Part shown: positions 12,784 to 55,952 of the stretch, piece by piece
How the letters are laid out: each line of letters starts with the position of its first letter
How positions within the stretch are numbered: position 1 is the stretch's first letter
Source: Candidatus Bathyarchaeia archaeon
GTDB taxonomy: Archaea > Thermoproteota > Bathyarchaeia > Bathyarchaeales > Bathycorpusculaceae
NCBI GenBank assembly: GCA_038883775.1
Contig: JAVZLM010000007.1
Location: 1 to 64,000 of the forward strand
Length of the DNA stretch: 64,000 bases
Direction of reading: 5' to 3'
Made by a program: the position numbers and the translations under genes
The notes under the pieces: generated by a model
Told to the model about the DNA's origin: nothing
The model's input: only the letters and a program-made list of their open reading frames with translations
The model's database searches: none

Positions 12784-13476
<693 letters not shown>

Positions 13477-13483
13477 GAGCAAA

Positions 13484-14371
13484 ATGACTTTGAAGGTTGA
13501 AGCAGAATGCGCCGCATGCATAATCAGTAGAGCAGCAGCAGAAGCTATGGAAGCCACAACAAATCCAGCCCTACGCTTTAGGGCAATGGCAGAAGTTATA
13601 AGATTCTTAAACAAAGAGTTCAAGCCAACAGCGGTTCCAGCGGACCTCGGCACAAAAAGGGATCGCATTATAAAATGGGTTTCTGGAAACGAAGATCCTT
13701 ACAAGAGGAATAAAAGGATAAGCAACGAAAAAGCCCTAAAAATTCTGCCTTTCGCCAGAAAAATTGTGGAAGAAGGCTATGCACAAGAGGATAGATTTAA
13801 GAGAGCAGTTTTATGCAGCATAGTCGGCAATGTAATCGAATTTGACATCCCCGGCCACAAATTCACTTTTGGTAGCATTAGAAAGCTTTTCAGAAATGCT
13901 TCTAAAGATTTAGCCATTGATGATACGGTTAAGATTTATGAATTGGCGAAAGAAGCTTCAATAATCCTTTATTTGACTGATAATGCAGGCGAAATTGTCT
14001 TTGATACTTTGCTTGTTGAGCAGTTGAAGAATATGGGCGTAAAGGTTGTTGTGGCTGTTAAAGATAAACCAGTAATTAATGATGCAACATTGGAGGATGC
14101 GGAAGTTTCTGGAATGAAAAAGATTGCTGACAAAGTAATCACCACGGGAACAGATGCTGTGGGCTTAGCCATAAACGAAGTTTCAAAAGAATTCCTCGAA
14201 GCCTACAACAATGTGGATTTGGTCTTCGCCAAAGGCATGGGATATGCCGAAACCTTAACCGAATATAAACTAAAAAAGCCCCACGCACTATTTTTCAGAA
14301 CCAAATGCAATCCAGTTGCAAACTTTTTTGCAGTGGCAAAGGAGAAAAATGTCGCAAAACTGATGATGTAA
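13484..14371 (+). CDS. DUF89/ARMT1-like damage-control phosphatase
   Basis: ECAAC, 'DPY', GNVIEF, DNAGEIVFD, NDAT, KGMGYAE and 'KC.PVA'. Confidence 0.9.
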   Translation: MTLKVEAECAACIISRAAAEAMEATTNPALRFRAMAEVIRFLNKEFKPTAVPADLGTKRDRIIKWVSGNEDPYKRNKRISNEKALKILPFARKIVEEGYAQEDRFKRAVLCSIVGNVIEFDIPGHKFTFGSIRKLFRNASKDLAIDDTVKIYELAKEASIILYLTDNAGEIVFDTLLVEQLKNMGVKVVVAVKDKPVINDATLEDAEVSGMKKIADKVITTGTDAVGLAINEVSKEFLEAYNNVDLVFAKGMGYAETLTEYKLKKPHALFFRTKCNPVANFFAVAKEKNVAKLMM

Positions 14372-36227: not shown

Positions 36228-36821
36228 ATGCAAGAAAACGAAAAGAAGAAGCTTGAAGAAATCATGAAAAAAAGTGAAGAACCCGCAAAAAGGACAACGA
36301 TAATTCTGGAGAAAGAGGAAAGAGAATTTATCGACTCATTAATTCGGGAGGGGAAGGAGCCAGGCATAAAACCGCTCATTTCAAAATTGCTTGATGTTTA
36401 TAGGAGCATGATGATTTATGATTGGCGGTTTCCAGGAGAATGTTATTGTGGCATTAGCCGAATGGCGTTCATAAACGTGGAATTAGTCAACATTCTCATA
36501 AACAACATTCCAAGGGAAAAATGGCACGAAATAGGAGCGAAAATGGGTGAAGCCGCGAAAGTTTCTATGGAGGCAACCTTGGGAATTCAAACCGCAGACC
36601 GCGAAAAATGGCAAGAAGTTTTCAAAAGGTTAAGGGTGCAGGGGTTTGGCGACATCTACCTAAAAGACAAATACATCCTCATAAAGGCACCATTCATCAA
36701 TGAAGCTGAAATTTGGGCTGGATTTTTGGAAGGCTTACTCAACATAGAAATCGACATAAAGACAACCACCTCACCCTTTGTTTTTGAAGTTAAAGAAAAA
36801 AGTGTGGAGCAAACAAAATAA
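36228..36821 (+). CDS. Putative regulator: ribbon-helix-helix-like N-terminus plus V4R-like ligand domain
   Basis: 'RTTIILEKEEREFIDSLIREG' at the N-terminus, then 'EIGAKMG', 'QGFG' and 'AGFLEGLL'. The domain call is a by-eye inference. Confidence 0.5.
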   Translation: MQENEKKKLEEIMKKSEEPAKRTTIILEKEEREFIDSLIREGKEPGIKPLISKLLDVYRSMMIYDWRFPGECYCGISRMAFINVELVNILINNIPREKWHEIGAKMGEAAKVSMEATLGIQTADREKWQEVFKRLRVQGFGDIYLKDKYILIKAPFINEAEIWAGFLEGLLNIEIDIKTTTSPFVFEVKEKSVEQTK

Positions 36822-41405: not shown

Positions 41406-41497
41406 GCGCTATTCAACTGTTTTTAACAATAAATTAGCAAACAGCATAAAAGCCAAATAACTTATTTTTGTTGTTTAAAAACGGAAACGTGAACAAG

Positions 41498-42307
41498 ATG
41501 GTTCAGCCAATGGAAATAATCTGTGTTGGAAATGAGTTGCTAATTGGCAAAACATTAAACACAAACGCCCAATGGCTTGCCAAACGTGTCACATCCATGG
41601 GAATTACTGTCAAGCGAATAACGGTTGTAAGCGATGATGTTGAAGAAATTGCTAAAGCCGTAAAAGAAGCCTTACAGCGAAAGCCTCGTTTTCTAATAAC
41701 AACAGGCGGTTTGGGACCAACCTTCGACGACAAAACCTTGGAGGGAATCGCTAAGGCTCTAAATTGCAAATTGGAAGTTAATGAGGAGGCTTTGAAAATG
41801 GTTAGAGAAAAATATGAGGCTTACGCCAAAGCTGGAAGAATTGAAAGGGTGGAGTTGACACCACCAATGGTAAAAATGGCAAGGCTTCCAAAAGGAGCGG
41901 AACCATTACCAAACCCTGTTGGCACGGCTCCAGGCGTAAAAATTGATGTTGAAAAAACATTTTTGATTGCTTTGCCTGGTGTTCCATCAGAAATGGAAGC
42001 TATTTTTGAGGGATCTGTTGCGCCTCTTCTAAAAGGGGAGGTTGGGGAGGCTGTGTTTTTTGAAACAAGCATTTACGCTGATAACATTATGGAATCTTCA
42101 TTAGCGCCATTGATTGATAAGACAATGCATGACAACCCTTACGTTTATATAAAATCTCATCCAAAAGGCGAAGAGAAAAAGCCGCACATAGAAATCCACT
42201 TTTCAACAACAGCTGAAAACTCTAAAATCGCCAAAGACCGCATTGGAAAAGCCATAATTCAATTATCAGAGCTTGTGCAGAAAAGCGGCGGAAAAATCAG
42301 AACATAA
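41498..42307 (+). CDS. CinA N-terminal / molybdopterin-binding domain protein
   Basis: 'VGNELLIG..LNTNAQWL', 'TTGGLGPTFDD', 'NPVGTAPG' and 'LPGVPSEM'. Confidence 0.9.
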   Translation: MVQPMEIICVGNELLIGKTLNTNAQWLAKRVTSMGITVKRITVVSDDVEEIAKAVKEALQRKPRFLITTGGLGPTFDDKTLEGIAKALNCKLEVNEEALKMVREKYEAYAKAGRIERVELTPPMVKMARLPKGAEPLPNPVGTAPGVKIDVEKTFLIALPGVPSEMEAIFEGSVAPLLKGEVGEAVFFETSIYADNIMESSLAPLIDKTMHDNPYVYIKSHPKGEEKKPHIEIHFSTTAENSKIAKDRIGKAIIQLSELVQKSGGKIRT

Positions 42308-42323
42308 AGCGAATGTGAATAAA

Positions 42324-43102
42324 ATGCTTGCTGATTATCATATTCACACTGAGGTTTCGCTGGACGCCAAAGGCTCAATGGAGGAATATGCCAAAAAAGC
42401 AAAGCAGAAAAGATTAGTGAAATAGGTTTTTCAGAACACATAACATTCCACCACATTAAAAGGCGCCCTTTCGTACCCATAAATTCCGCTTACTTTCAAA
42501 ACTTCCTCAATTTAAAGGCTAATGCGGATTTGCCGGTGAAATTGGGCGCCGAAGTGGATTTCATCCCAAAATTTACTGAAAAAATTGAAGATTTTGTTAG
42601 AAAATTTCCTCTTGATTATGTTATTGGAGCTGTTCATTTTATTGGCGATTGTTCTGTTGATTCGCCATCACAAATTAACGAATACTTAAAAAGAGATATT
42701 CTAAAAACTTATGAGGAATATTTTAGTCTCGTCAAAAAATTATGCGAATGTCGGCTTTTCGACGTTTTGGCTCATCCAGACTTAATAAAAATTTTTGGAT
42801 TTAAACCAAAAACCGATTTCTCCCATCTTCTTAGGGAGGTTGCTGAAGCAATGGCAAAGTATAACGTTTGTGCCGAAATCAACACCAGCGGGTTGAGAAG
42901 ACCATGCAAAGAGATTTACCCAAGCGAACAATTTTTGAAAATATTACACAGCTACAACGTTCTCATAGTTTTTGGTTCATGGGCGTCTGAACCAAATGAA
43001 GTGGGTAGAAATTTCGAAGAAGCTAGAAAGTTAGCAAGGAAAATTGGTTATAGACAAGCTTGTGTTTTCAATCACAGAGAAAGGAAGATTATTGAAATCT
43101 AA
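42324..43102 (+). pseudogene. PHP-family histidinol-phosphatase (HisJ/HisK-like), frameshifted and with an inverted active-site motif
   Basis: ATG 42324 gives MLADYHIHT...KAKQK, then TAG. The -1 frame continues ISEIGFSEH...GAEVD...GAVH...AHPD...EINTSG. The final motif reads GSWAS instead of GSDAH. Confidence 0.85.
42971..42996. repeat. 9-bp perfect inverted repeat with 8-nt loop
   Basis: TTTGGTTCA-TGGGCGTC-TGAACCAAA. Confidence 0.95.
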
Positions 43103-43170
43103 CTATTTTGCTATTGATCATGAGTCCATAAGAGTCATAAATTAGTAAAACAATAAATTTTGAGAGTAAA

Positions 43171-44331
43171 ATGAAAACGCCGATTTTAAGGAATCTCATA
43201 ATATTAATGATTCTGCTTGCATTGGTCTATTCGTTTCCATGTTGTTTAGCGGAAACTTACAGCATTTCCTATCAAATTTTAGATGAACCTGAAGGTTCAA
43301 CATATTATAGGTTAAATGTTGAAATTCAACAATCACTCTACGAGTATTATAGCGGGAAAAGTCACACTTTAAGCTCAAACGCTGATTTTGCAAAATTTGT
43401 TACGCCTTATTCATTGAAGCCCATTGCAGATAATCTTTGGAAAATTTGTTCCGACGATGAAGATTTCGCTAACGGTGTGTTAATGATTGTGCATCAAATA
43501 CCATATGAAATTACTGAACCGGCGAAATATCCAATAGAAACAATGATGGAAAATAAAGGTGATTGCGACCTCTTTTCGTTTATTGCTGCATCAATTATGA
43601 AAGCTGGTGGGCTTGATGTTGTGCTTTTATATTACAAGGATAAGATACACATGAATGTTGGCGTCAGCCTTTCCCATACACCTTACGATGCAAGAGGACA
43701 AATTTACTATGTAATTCACAACAACGTTAAATATTACATAGCTGAATGTACTGGTTACTTTCAAGACGGATGGAGAGTCGGCGAGTGCCCAGAGAGTTTA
43801 AAGCAAGCTTCTGTGGAAATTATTACTCTTGAAAGCTGTGAAACATGGTCTCCGGGACAAGTTTCTGCAAGCTACAAAACCTTAATAGCATCAACAATTT
43901 CCCTCACTGTATCGCCAACATACATTATAAGCCAAGGCACAGTTACACTCAATGGAGAAATTTCACCAGCCCTACAAAATAAAACCGTCACCATTTACAT
44001 AAGCGTGAACAATTCGCCCTGGAAAGTTTTAGGCGCAACCACAACAGATTCTAATGGACGCTTCACATACGTTTGGAATGTGGAAACTTACAGTGGAGTC
44101 TGTTTCATTCGCGCCAGCTGGTCTGGGGATTATGATTATGCTGGAGCAGACAGCCCAATACAGACAATAACGGTATTATCTATGTTCTTCGTTTTGTTGT
44201 TGGCAGCTACCATGATTTTGGTTTGTATGGGCATGATCATATTCGTCACTTCACGGCAAGCTCAGCCAAAAATGCCAGAACCCCTTCTTAACAGAAAAAG
44301 TTTTACCAAACAGTTAAAGCATTGGTATTAA
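43171..44331 (+). CDS. Secreted transglutaminase-like cysteine protease domain plus Ig-like domain and C-terminal TM
   Basis: Signal peptide, 'KYPIET...GDCD', 'HMNVGV', 'YYIAECT', 'TTDSNGRF' and a TM anchor. Confidence 0.75.
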   Translation: MKTPILRNLIILMILLALVYSFPCCLAETYSISYQILDEPEGSTYYRLNVEIQQSLYEYYSGKSHTLSSNADFAKFVTPYSLKPIADNLWKICSDDEDFANGVLMIVHQIPYEITEPAKYPIETMMENKGDCDLFSFIAASIMKAGGLDVVLLYYKDKIHMNVGVSLSHTPYDARGQIYYVIHNNVKYYIAECTGYFQDGWRVGECPESLKQASVEIITLESCETWSPGQVSASYKTLIASTISLTVSPTYIISQGTVTLNGEISPALQNKTVTIYISVNNSPWKVLGATTTDSNGRFTYVWNVETYSGVCFIRASWSGDYDYAGADSPIQTITVLSMFFVLLLAATMILVCMGMIIFVTSRQAQPKMPEPLLNRKSFTKQLKHWY

Positions 44332-44347
44332 AAGTTAAGTGATAAAG

Positions 44348-45109
44348 ATGTTTACAGTTTTCATTATAGGGACAGCTGGCTCTGGAAAGTCTATGCTCAC
44401 ATCAGCCTTCAACGAATGGTTGAAGATGTCAAAACAAGATGTTGCAGTCGTAAACCTTGACCCTGGAGCTTTGACACTTCCATATACGCCAGACATGGAC
44501 ATTAGGGATTACGTGGACATTGAAAGCCTTATGGAAGAGTATGGTTTAGGACCAAACGGAGCATTAATAATGGCTGCAGATTTAATTGCAGACAAAATTG
44601 AAGAGATTTCCAAAGAAATTGAGGATTTAAGGTCTGACATAGTTTTGGTTGACACTCCGGGGCAGATGGAGTTATTCGCTTTTAGGGCAAGCGGACCCTA
44701 CATTGCCAGTGAGCTTACAAAGGAAAACAAAGCTATAGTTTACTTGTTTGACGCTGTTTTTTGCGTTAACCCGCTTAATTATGTTTCAAACCTTTTCCTT
44801 TCAGCCGCAGTCTACAACCGCTTCCTACTACCACAAGTGCATATCCTTTCAAAGTGCGATTTGCTTCCAAAAGAGGAAGTTGACAAGATTGTGGATTGGT
44901 CGGCTAATCCTAAGGCTTTGGAAAATGCCATCGAACAAAAACTTGAAGGAACCAAACGCTTACTCAGCAGAAACATGATGCTGGCAATTCACAAACTTGG
45001 TTTAAGATTTTTACTAATCCCAGTCTCGGCAAAAACCAACGAGGGAATGATAAACTTTAATATGGCATTGGAACGCATCTTGGCGGGAGGGGACAAATAT
45101 ACATACTAA
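44348..45109 (+). CDS. GPN-loop GTPase
   Basis: GTAGSGKS, NLDP, 'YGLGPNG' and DTPGQME. Confidence 0.95.
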   Translation: MFTVFIIGTAGSGKSMLTSAFNEWLKMSKQDVAVVNLDPGALTLPYTPDMDIRDYVDIESLMEEYGLGPNGALIMAADLIADKIEEISKEIEDLRSDIVLVDTPGQMELFAFRASGPYIASELTKENKAIVYLFDAVFCVNPLNYVSNLFLSAAVYNRFLLPQVHILSKCDLLPKEEVDKIVDWSANPKALENAIEQKLEGTKRLLSRNMMLAIHKLGLRFLLIPVSAKTNEGMINFNMALERILAGGDKYTY

Positions 45110-45729
45110 TTAAGCAGAGCCCACGCTGCAGCTAAAGCCCCATGATGAGCTTTCTCAGGGGTATTGGCACTAACAATAATTATAACGTCATTTTCCTCGG
45201 GTTTAAGAAAACTCAAAATCTGACTTGCAGCTTTCGGGAAATCTTCAGCCACATTATTACTAACGGATGGAATGATTAAGCGTTGCCCCTTAAAAAGTAA
45301 TGTAGTGGCGCTTTTCGCGCCCACCATCACGGCAGCATCCCGTTGTTCCATGCCAGATTTAACTTTGTGCGCATGATTTTTTACTAAAATTGCAAAATTA
45401 TACTCTGCAAGCGTCAATTCATTTTTCTCAATCTCGATTTTCTCTTTAAAAATTGTCTTATACTCTTTCCATAGGCTTAAACCCTTTTTTGTAAGAAGGC
45501 AACCAGCCGTGGAGACCGTAATTAAACCAGCCTTTTGCAGTCGATTAATTATAGTACGTACAGCCCCTTCCCCAACCTTCAAATTTTCAGCCAACATGCC
45601 ACGACCAATAGGCTGTTTAGCCATAACGTCTATCGCATTTAATATGTGAAAAAGCGAAAAGGTTGGAGATGGACCTGGAGCTCTTTCGCTTGCTATTTTT
45701 TCTAAAATTTGCTTAAATGCGTGAGACAT
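45106..45729 (-). CDS. wHTH plus DUF4443-like protein
   Basis: 'IGRGMLAENLKVGEGAVRTII' and 'GMEQRDAAVMVGAKSATT'. Confidence 0.75.
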   Translation of the reverse strand: MSHAFKQILEKIASERAPGPSPTFSLFHILNAIDVMAKQPIGRGMLAENLKVGEGAVRTIINRLQKAGLITVSTAGCLLTKKGLSLWKEYKTIFKEKIEIEKNELTLAEYNFAILVKNHAHKVKSGMEQRDAAVMVGAKSATTLLFKGQRLIIPSVSNNVAEDFPKAASQILSFLKPEENDVIIIVSANTPEKAHHGALAAAWALLN

Positions 45730-54462: not shown

Positions 54463-55692
54463 CTACTGCTCCATAAAAGTTGCAGAGATATAAAGAAAAA
54501 AACGAAGGATAATTGGTAAAACCCTCGGATTCGGCAGAAGTTTCAAAAGGGTTTTCCCTTGAAAATCTATTTCTTCAATTTTATTTAAAGTCTTGTTTAA
54601 ATCCAGCCTTTCACATAAACTGATAGCTTCGTCAAGTTTCTCGTCAGACAAACCATTAAGTATCTTCCTAACTTTAAGCATAACCTTCATGTCAAAACCA
54701 AAATTTTCTTTACAGCGCTGAGCGTATACGCTTAGAAATTTTGAAGAAAAATCATTTCTCTGCAAGGCTTCATATGCAACCTCAGCAGCAATTCTTGAAC
54801 AAGATAAGCCAAAAATTAAACCACCGCCGGTTGTAGGCTTAACTTGAGAAGTCGCATCGCCAACAGCCAAAAAACCATTTGAATAAGTTTTTGAGATTGG
54901 TCCGCCAAGAGATATGGGATGAAAAGCCATATGCGAAATTTTTGCTTTGCGCAATTTTTTTGAGGCTACTGGATGTTTAAGCATGAACCGTTGCAAAAAC
55001 TCTTTGGGATTCCCATGTTTTGTGGCTAATCCAACTTTTGCCTCGTCTTCGCCTTTTGGAATCAGCCATGCATAAAAACCAGGCGCATACTCATTGCCGA
55101 GAAAAACTTCTACGCTGTCTTGTTCCACATTTTTAACGTTTTTAACTTCTGCATGTACGCCATGAACGAACATGCGCCCATATTTGGGTGAGAGGTTGGC
55201 TTGCCGCAGAATTTTTGAGGAAATTCCTTCGGCATCCATCACAATTTTAGCGAAATATTTTTCGATTTTTCCATTTTGGTTGACGCTCACTCCTTTCACA
55301 AAACCACTCTCAAAAATTAAGGATTCGACACGAGAATTTAGATGATAGAGAACTCCTTCTTTTTTCGCCATTTCAGCAATGTAATTGTCGAAAAGGGAAC
55401 GATTAACAACACACGTTACGGGTGAAGAAAAGCGGACAGCAAATTCGCTGCCCTTCGGCGAGTGAAAGATAACTCCACGAAAAGTGTTTTCAACAATTTT
55501 CTCTGGAGGCGGATATAAACCTAAACGTTTCAAACCGTTAATTGCCACATGCCCTGGACAATGGATTGGAAAGCCTATTTGAGCGTGTTCTTCGAAAACT
55601 CTTACCTTAACTCCAAGTTTTGCAAGGTTTAGGGCTGTGAAGGAACCGCAGGGTCCGCCTCCGATGATGATGGCATCTGAAAAGTTTTCCAT
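54463..55692 (-). CDS. Geranylgeranyl reductase family flavoprotein
   Basis: GGGPCG, 'DAEG', 'PGFYAWLIP' and 'VGDA..QVKPTTGGG'. Confidence 0.9.
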   Translation of the reverse strand: MENFSDAIIIGGGPCGSFTALNLAKLGVKVRVFEEHAQIGFPIHCPGHVAINGLKRLGLYPPPEKIVENTFRGVIFHSPKGSEFAVRFSSPVTCVVNRSLFDNYIAEMAKKEGVLYHLNSRVESLIFESGFVKGVSVNQNGKIEKYFAKIVMDAEGISSKILRQANLSPKYGRMFVHGVHAEVKNVKNVEQDSVEVFLGNEYAPGFYAWLIPKGEDEAKVGLATKHGNPKEFLQRFMLKHPVASKKLRKAKISHMAFHPISLGGPISKTYSNGFLAVGDATSQVKPTTGGGLIFGLSCSRIAAEVAYEALQRNDFSSKFLSVYAQRCKENFGFDMKVMLKVRKILNGLSDEKLDEAISLCERLDLNKTLNKIEEIDFQGKTLLKLLPNPRVLPIILRFFLYISATFMEQ

Positions 55693-55724
55693 GATTACAC
55701 ATTAAAAGAGTTGAAGTTAAAGGC

Positions 55725-55952
55725 TTATGTTATAAGTTCGATTCTTCTTTTTCCACGAACCATAGAAGTTGTCCGTATTTTTCCAGCGACCTCTAACCTC
55801 ATAAGAAACTCGTTAAAGTCCTTGAAGCCCAAATCCTTAAACTCCTCACTTAAAACCTCAAAGAGCTCAGTATCCGTCATGGCGCCCTTCTTTTTCAAGA
55901 CTTCTAAAAGAACATAATAGGCTGGATGTGTCTTCCAAGTTTTAACTGGCAA
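55725..55952 (-). CDS. Small wHTH protein downstream of cdc48
   Basis: 'LKKKGAMTDTELFE.L...FNEFLMRLEVAGKI'. Confidence 0.75.
   Translation of the reverse strand: MPVKTWKTHPAYYVLLEVLKKKGAMTDTELFEVLSEEFKDLGFKDFNEFLMRLEVAGKIRTTSMVRGKRRIELIT

Follow-up and report, generated by a model that had tools for sequence, protein, structure and literature searches.

An inverted 8-nt hairpin loop replaces two metal ligands in a decaying HisJ-family PHP gene of a Bathyarchaeia genome

Within 64,000 nucleotides of DNA from a Candidatus Bathyarchaeia archaeon (contig JAVZLM010000007.1, positions 1 to 64,000; the whole stretch analysed, hereafter the window), the loop of a short hairpin inside a gene of the HisJ family of PHP phosphoesterases is present as the reverse complement of its counterpart in related genomes. 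The inverted state is derived, it is found in contigs of two independent sequencing runs, it shares its gene with a frameshift, and it is unique in the part of the genome that was compared with a relative. We assign a probability of roughly 80% to the reading that this is a real, lineage-specific loop inversion produced by template switching, and that the gene in which it sits is a decaying pseudogene and not a regulatory device.

Positions 42971-42996 read TTTGGTTCA (left arm), TGGGCGTC (loop) and TGAACCAAA (right arm), and a repeat search found the two 9-nt arms, 8 nt apart, to be 100% complementary (Table 1). Folded as single-stranded DNA, the hairpin reaches -7.0 kcal/mol (z = -4.5), and none of 200 shuffled sequences folded equally well. 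The translation of the open frame at 42353-43102 contains IVFGSWASEPNEVG, with the motif G-S-W-A-S, and a script that reverse-complemented the loop alone returned G-S-D-A-H with the frame unchanged. The flip thus removes the D and the H of a D-x-H metal-ligand pair, putting W and S in their place, and keeps both length and frame. An earlier note on this DNA had described a hairpin of perfect 9-bp arms and an 8-nt loop that encodes F-G-S-W-A-S-E-P as a whole, and had claimed that reversal of the loop gives F-G-S-D-A-H-E-P; repeat search, translation and script agree with it on each count. The inverted repeat per se is ordinary: perfect repeats with arms of at least 9 nt and loops of 3-12 nt number two in the 64-kb window, where 20 shuffles gave 4.75 on average, and 85 in the genome to which the window belongs (G000). 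What carries the signal is the relation of the loop to the relatives. The other repeat in the window with arms of at least 9 bp lies from 9423 onward and has a loop of 11 nt.

Table 1. Features of the hairpin and of the PHP pseudogene, in window coordinates
Feature	Position	Strand	Remarks
N-terminal segment of PHP pseudogene	42324..42409	+	ATG at 42324; D-Y-H-I-H, then a conserved D
1-nt deletion site, -1 frameshift	42409..42410	+	MAFFT gap relative to orthologs
Rest of PHP/HisJ-family coding sequence, second frame	42410..43102	+	Stop at 43100-43102
Left arm	42971..42979	+	Codons F-G-S
Inverted 8-nt loop	42980..42987	+	D-A-H to W-A-S; exact reverse complement of the G003/G001 8-mer
Right arm	42988..42996	+	Last base of the former H codon, E-P, first two bases of N

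Four other genomes of the same genus (G001 to G004) were available for comparison. Set against the orthologous 8-mer of G003 and G001, the loop matches at eight of eight positions as a reverse complement and at two of eight as written; for G004 the figures are six of eight and three of eight, and over the 10-nt stretch ATGGGCGTCT (the loop with one flanking base on each side) G002 agrees at nine of ten positions when reversed and at four of ten when read directly. There is no indel at the loop relative to these genomes, and its length is maintained. By arithmetic, 8 of the 65,536 possible 8-mers yield D-A-H when reversed, and this figure, together with the full reverse-complement match to G003 and G001, upholds the earlier view that an exact restoration of the motif is unlikely to arise by chance. 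G-S-D-[A/S]-H is encoded at all 17 related loci, where the window has G-S-W-A-S; 16 of these loci were picked by a regular expression that itself requires the motif, and inspection by eye showed the motif in the one that the expression dropped (L038) as well. In the alignment of the 17, the D and the H never vary, and the window departs from no other invariant column. Against a profile made from the relatives, the window protein reaches 372.8 bits as it stands and 383.3 bits with the loop reversed. With the loop native in 17 of 17 orthologous loci, the flipped state is, on this comparison of sequences, derived and placed on the terminal branch, and the footprint and polarity are those that the earlier note had ascribed to a derived template-switch inversion of the loop alone.

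The arms behave differently from the loop. The right arm is identical to that of G004 and G003, and the left arm differs at its sixth position (42976), which is T in the window, C in G004, G001 and G002, and G in G003. The change is synonymous (GGT in the window, GGC in G004, GGG in G003), and it completes the perfect repeat, the arms of the closest relatives being complementary at 8 of 9 positions. The earlier note had named conservation of the arms at synonymous sites as a point to check in orthologs; the arms turned out to be unconserved, with complementarity in the 16 relatives measured of 8, 8, 7, 7, 7, 6, 6, 6, 6, 5, 5, 5, 4, 4, 3 and 2 of 9. Stem energies fall likewise, from -7.0 kcal/mol in the window to -5.3 in G003, -3.4 in G004 and about 0 in the rest (range to +1.3). 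Since neither arms nor fold energies are conserved, the hairpin is a by-product of codon choice and not a conserved structure.

A sequence of steps that would produce this footprint can be proposed. The codons F-G-S...(H)-E-P-N would form a short quasi-palindrome; in the course of replication or of gap repair, the growing strand would leave its template within the left arm for the complementary one, copy the 8-nt spacer in the reverse-complement sense and return at the right arm, so that D and H would become W and S in a product of the same length and frame. An asymmetric switch that set in beyond the mismatch in the left arm and came back at the border of loop and right arm would account in one event for the C/G-to-T change at 42976 as well as for the six differences in the loop. 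The T at 42976 may therefore stem from the same event as the flip, which would have made the left arm perfect, although more distant relatives also have T at this codon, and the change may thus be an independent synonymous one. On this reading, the flip is one lesion among several in a pseudogene under relaxed selection.

Between 9-bp arms, template switching and breakage with rejoining would be expected to leave the same sequence outcome, and a real inversion by another route, either cleavage and rejoining of a cruciform or hairpin or illegitimate recombination between the arms, would give the same end product, an exact spacer inversion between perfect arms, provided that the arms were perfect beforehand. 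We regard such a route as unlikely. One asymmetric template switch would cover the T at 42976 and the loop together, whereas a symmetric break-and-rejoin event spanning the mismatch would be expected to alter the right arm, which is unchanged. Template switching is also the documented route for inverted repeats as short as these (PMC8604942, PMC8794818).

The gene that contains the hairpin scores above the cut-offs of its family. The frame scores 231.4 bits against NF005596 'histidinol-phosphatase' (cut-off 202), 96.8 bits against TIGR01856 (HisJ family; cut-off 90.2) and 51.5 bits against PF02811 (PHP; cut-off 26.4), and among solved structures the closest is the histidinol phosphatase of Thermus thermophilus (2yxo), in which ...LGSDAH... 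aligns with the G-S-W-A-S of the window. PHP domains hold three metals by nine residues, with the consensus H, H, D/H, H, E, H, C/H, D/N, H (PMC3666897), and the flipped D-x-H pair occupies the eighth and ninth places of that consensus. The complete set of nine is absent from the window copy, which carries D220W and H222S. The other seven metal-ligand positions are readable in it, on an assignment based on conserved columns and on known PHP motifs. Orthologs with 70-80% protein identity and open frames of 259-294 aa occur in all four other genomes of the genus. Of the 24 other genomes of the family, 8 yielded the gene, a patchy presence that suggests that it is dispensable. In the four genus species the gene is kept intact and lies directly downstream of a CinA-like MoCF_biosynth gene (window 41468-42307).

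The name 'histidinol phosphatase' is doubtful even for the intact relatives, given that histidinol dehydrogenase was not found. Profile searches of G000 (91% complete) recovered neither histidinol dehydrogenase (PF00815) nor IGPD (PF00475), PF00815 was found in none of the five genus genomes while controls were positive in all 14 named genomes, and PF00977 gave only borderline matches at the level of the cut-off. Judged from these searches, the genus seems to be without histidine biosynthesis, and the enzyme of the intact relatives may act on another phosphoester. Elsewhere in G000, at C10:4887-5066 and C3:26613-26822 (both on the minus strand), ORFs of 219 and 202 aa align with the Pfam PHP model over its first 64-70 positions and may represent other PHP-family enzymes.

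A second lesion in the same gene had been missed by the earlier note. The N-terminal 28 codons (M-L-A-D-Y-H-I-H-T...) lie in a different frame (42258-42425) that ends at a stop at 42423-42425, and the 33-aa N-terminal piece matches PHP positions 1-29 and NF005596 positions 2-33. A single nucleotide is missing at the junction: the window reads CAGAAAAG where G003 has CAGAAGAAG, with an extra G, and the surrounding G003 sequence is otherwise identical. The proteins of all four same-genus relatives are split across two frames at this deletion, which separates the N-terminal H-x-H segment from the remainder of the gene. Programmed frameshifting at 42409/42410 was considered and set aside, as no slippery heptamer was seen in phase and the site would be most simply read as a plain missing G relative to G003.

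Substitutions point in the same direction as the frameshift. Among 77 columns conserved in at least 15 of 17 relatives, the window copy deviates at six (F97L, W110C, S143C, D220W, H222S and K239R), compared with none or one in each of the ten closest relatives, and the four replacements besides the two in the loop sit where close relatives never or almost never change. Branch-specific changes amount to 20 nonsynonymous and 14 synonymous on the window branch against 11 and 15 on the G004 branch, an excess that is not significant (Fisher p = 0.30, calculated on 19:14 with one loop codon dropped). Frameshift-like splits in G000 affect 11 of 546 G004 ORFs (candidates, from matches of at least 60% identity), and a frameshift in any given gene is therefore uncommon, yet not rare. 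Taken together, the frameshift, the flip and the extra replacements mark the gene as a pseudogene; two lesions and additional replacements concentrated in one gene fit relaxed selection better than scattered error. Decay was one of the options that the earlier note had left on the table, and the frameshift at 42409/42410 and the four extra replacements in the same gene speak for it.

Ten of the candidate split ORFs lie outside the window, in G000 contigs C6 (117431-118305, 129146-130401, 42101-42924 and 123729-124327), C1 (40390-40927 and 144578-144875), C5 (124179-124626) and C7 (135582-136311, 113323-113864 and 90551-91434). These are candidates for frameshifts or pseudogenes in G000 or G004, or for differences in start site. 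A split match at window 55502-55829 was rejected as a second frameshift, being a spurious antisense ORF across an intergenic gap.

We scanned for further inversions at two scales. In the window, about 8-29 kb of aligned sequence per relative (four relatives) was searched for segments that fit better as reverse complement, which brought up the PHP loop against three relatives, a further clean case in a DUF4443 gene and a weak 6-mer; reverse-only and complement-only controls gave no hits in the same scan. On the genome scale, G000 was aligned to 847 kb of G004 (727,363 columns, 86.9% identity), which covers about 43% of G000 with one relative. Loose clusters of reverse-complement mismatches numbered 72, and only the PHP loop among them had arms of at least 5 bp (9 bp). 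Likewise, 948 inverted repeats (arms of at least 7, loops of 3-20) had a gapless G004 alignment, and the PHP hairpin was the only one whose loop fitted better reversed. A genome-wide look for other arm-flanked loops in flipped orientation, as the earlier note had advised, thus came back without a further case among the 948 comparable hairpins of the approximately 727 kb aligned to G004. Short armless clusters (5-10 nt, perfect reverse complement relative to G004) were discarded as events, their number (7) being at the level of chance as set by the reverse-only control (16); that perfect-match scan misses the PHP loop itself, since the loop of G004 has diverged.

The DUF4443 case is a second loop inversion, in G002 (G002:C19 about 13540-13560, within a match at 13406-13704), and corresponds to window 45433-45453 in a minus-strand gene at 45106-45729. 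In G001, 7-bp arms CAGTTTT/AAAACTG surround CTCTTTA, in G002 the same arms surround TAAAGAG, and the window, G004 and G003 share the orientation of G001. The G002 flip is in frame in a gene for a DUF4443 / CggR_N-type regulator that is apparently intact, and changes F-K-E-K to F-S-L-K. A further difference was observed at window 36801-36810, at the 3' end of a plus-strand gene just before the stop, where the window has GTGTGGAG and G004 CTGCGGGA, and where G001 (TCCCACAG) and G002 (TTCCACAG) are reverse-complement-like; no flanking arms are evident there, and the difference could be an older micro-inversion or chance.

Two clean coding-gene events (the PHP gene, and DUF4443 in G002) in one 64-kb neighbourhood across five genomes are the basis for a broader proposal, namely that the flipping of hairpin loops through template switching recurs in hot-spring Bathyarchaeia as an in-frame and possibly reversible class of mutation, and that in a fraction of the population the perfect PHP hairpin could still return to the native orientation. 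We think this proposal improbable as it stands. If it were true, chance quasi-palindromes in codons would be struck with a frequency sufficient to change several neighbouring residues in one step.

The window belongs to a metagenome-assembled draft genome (28 contigs, 91% complete, 5% contamination), and local depth in run X1 is only about 8-10, two circumstances in which the native loop might be what the genome really holds, and the flip a product of a fold-back chimera made in vitro or of the assembler. The runs that hold the window sequence are hot-spring metagenomes, four of which (X1 to X4) were examined as Logan contigs; such contigs drop rare variants, and the results that follow hold among the contigs listed. 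X1, with a share of 0.92, is probably the sample from which the genome was assembled. Its record 7 (1471 nt, depth 7.74) spans 42917-44387 without a difference and hence carries the flipped loop. The deletion lies within its record 2 (559 nt, depth 10), which spans 42124-42682 and likewise shows no differences. X2, which derives from another sample and another study, contributes record 11 (379 nt, depth 5.6), which spans 42923-43301 with a single difference, where a native loop would give six; this one contig constitutes the independent support beyond X1.

The flip and the deletion are thus reproduced by a second, independent assembly of X1 and the flip is also present in a contig of X2, which argues that the change is real; occurrence in contigs of two runs from two studies is not what an assembler error would produce. 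Arms of 9 bp are, moreover, shorter than the usual assembly words and should create no ambiguity in the assembly graph. No other hairpin among the 948 comparable ones is flipped, and random artefacts would not concentrate in a gene that also carries a frameshift and extra replacements. For these reasons, an artefact of amplification, library preparation or assembly, which the earlier note had entertained, is in our judgement very unlikely. No same-strain contig over the frameshift was found in a second run among the contigs listed; contigs of relatives in X2-X4 have an extra G behind 42409, and none in X1 does.

The earlier note had also raised a more attractive possibility, in which the loop serves as a reversible in-frame toggle that works without a recombinase and turns the active site on and off at constant protein length. 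The perfect 9-bp arms and the stability of the hairpin would suit such a device, native and flipped contigs both occur in the same hot-spring data sets, and repeated spacer flips have been reported for SPO75 and YBZ1 in yeast (PMC8604942). Against this stands above all the frameshift, which cuts off the H-x-H segment and is independent of loop orientation, so that neither orientation gives a full enzyme and a back-flip would not restore one. Arm complementarity is unconstrained among the relatives (2-8 of 9), whose hairpins are weak (-5.3 to about 0 kcal/mol), and all 17 related loci are native; unconserved arms and a frameshift together argue against a switch.

The native contigs in these data sets do not change that assessment. 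A contig in X4 at depth 37.8 aligns with one base left out at 42985 and an A put in behind 42987, the pattern of a native loop aligned to a flipped one, which indicates that the native loop in X4 belongs to a relative of higher abundance. Same-strain contigs in X1 and X2 are flipped only, with no native loop seen among the contigs listed, which drop rare variants. A pattern scan of the metagenomes in which either loop orientation was allowed returned only two contigs and no second strain of the window's species; both contigs are approximately 81% identical to the window (about as G001 is), with a native loop and an intact gene. An on/off switch is, in our estimation, extremely improbable, and the reading that we prefer remains a real inversion in a decaying gene.

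That reading has consequences for how such sites are interpreted. One event accounts for six (possibly seven) base differences and two replacements in a catalytic motif, and in an ordinary alignment the flip would be mistaken for a cluster of substitutions that arose independently, if not for positive selection. Annotators can take from it that a gene which scores above family cut-offs, with an open frame across the active site, can still be dead. The flip is a fresh and unusually tidy instance of a known mutation class, placed in an archaeal pseudogene, and involves no new mechanism or biological system. The class has been documented in the literature for yeast, primates, rRNA and a virus; a literature search of incomplete coverage found no archaeal case.

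The closest parallels are in Saccharomyces cerevisiae, for which PMC8604942 describes 10 spacer inversions in coding genes by intermolecular template switching, one with arm homogenisation (REG2), and some sites that flipped repeatedly. As in those cases, the PHP gene has perfect short arms within a coding sequence and an exact reverse-complement spacer, with length and frame kept, several neighbouring residues replaced at once on a terminal branch, and possible arm homogenisation as in REG2 (PMC8604942). The yeast events have arms of 10-16 bp, spacers of 2-5 bp and at most two spacer residues replaced, whereas the arms here are 9 bp and the spacer is 8 nt (PMC8604942). The present case also differs from the yeast ones in its archaeal host, in the loss of two catalytic metal ligands and in that the gene is otherwise broken.

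Hairpins of functional RNAs offer a second comparison: for rRNA hairpins, PMC8794818 reports 69 events of the type 'loop inversion only', some of them in loops of 7-8 nt. As in those rRNA and microRNA flips, the loop is inverted between pairing stem halves and the stems are without a footprint, and, as in the bacterial rRNA examples, a loop of 7-8 nt shows several differences (PMC8794818). The rRNA and microRNA hairpins belong to functional RNAs kept by selection, whereas the stem in the window is a by-product of codon choice, is unconserved and has no RNA role that we could see.

With the HisJ-family PHP phosphatases (NF005596, TIGR01856; 2yxo, 4gc3), the window gene shares scores above the curated cut-offs and seven readable ligand positions of nine, and it departs from them in the lost D-x-H pair and the broken reading frame. 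Finally, the flip resembles an inverton in that DNA flanked by inverted repeats has its orientation reversed. Invertons span tens to thousands of bases, are bounded by conserved repeats, depend on a recombinase, occur in both orientations within a population and most often turn promoters or the ends of genes around. The segment described here, unlike an inverton, is 8 nt long, lies between unconserved arms and has one orientation in those contigs of the strain that were listed.
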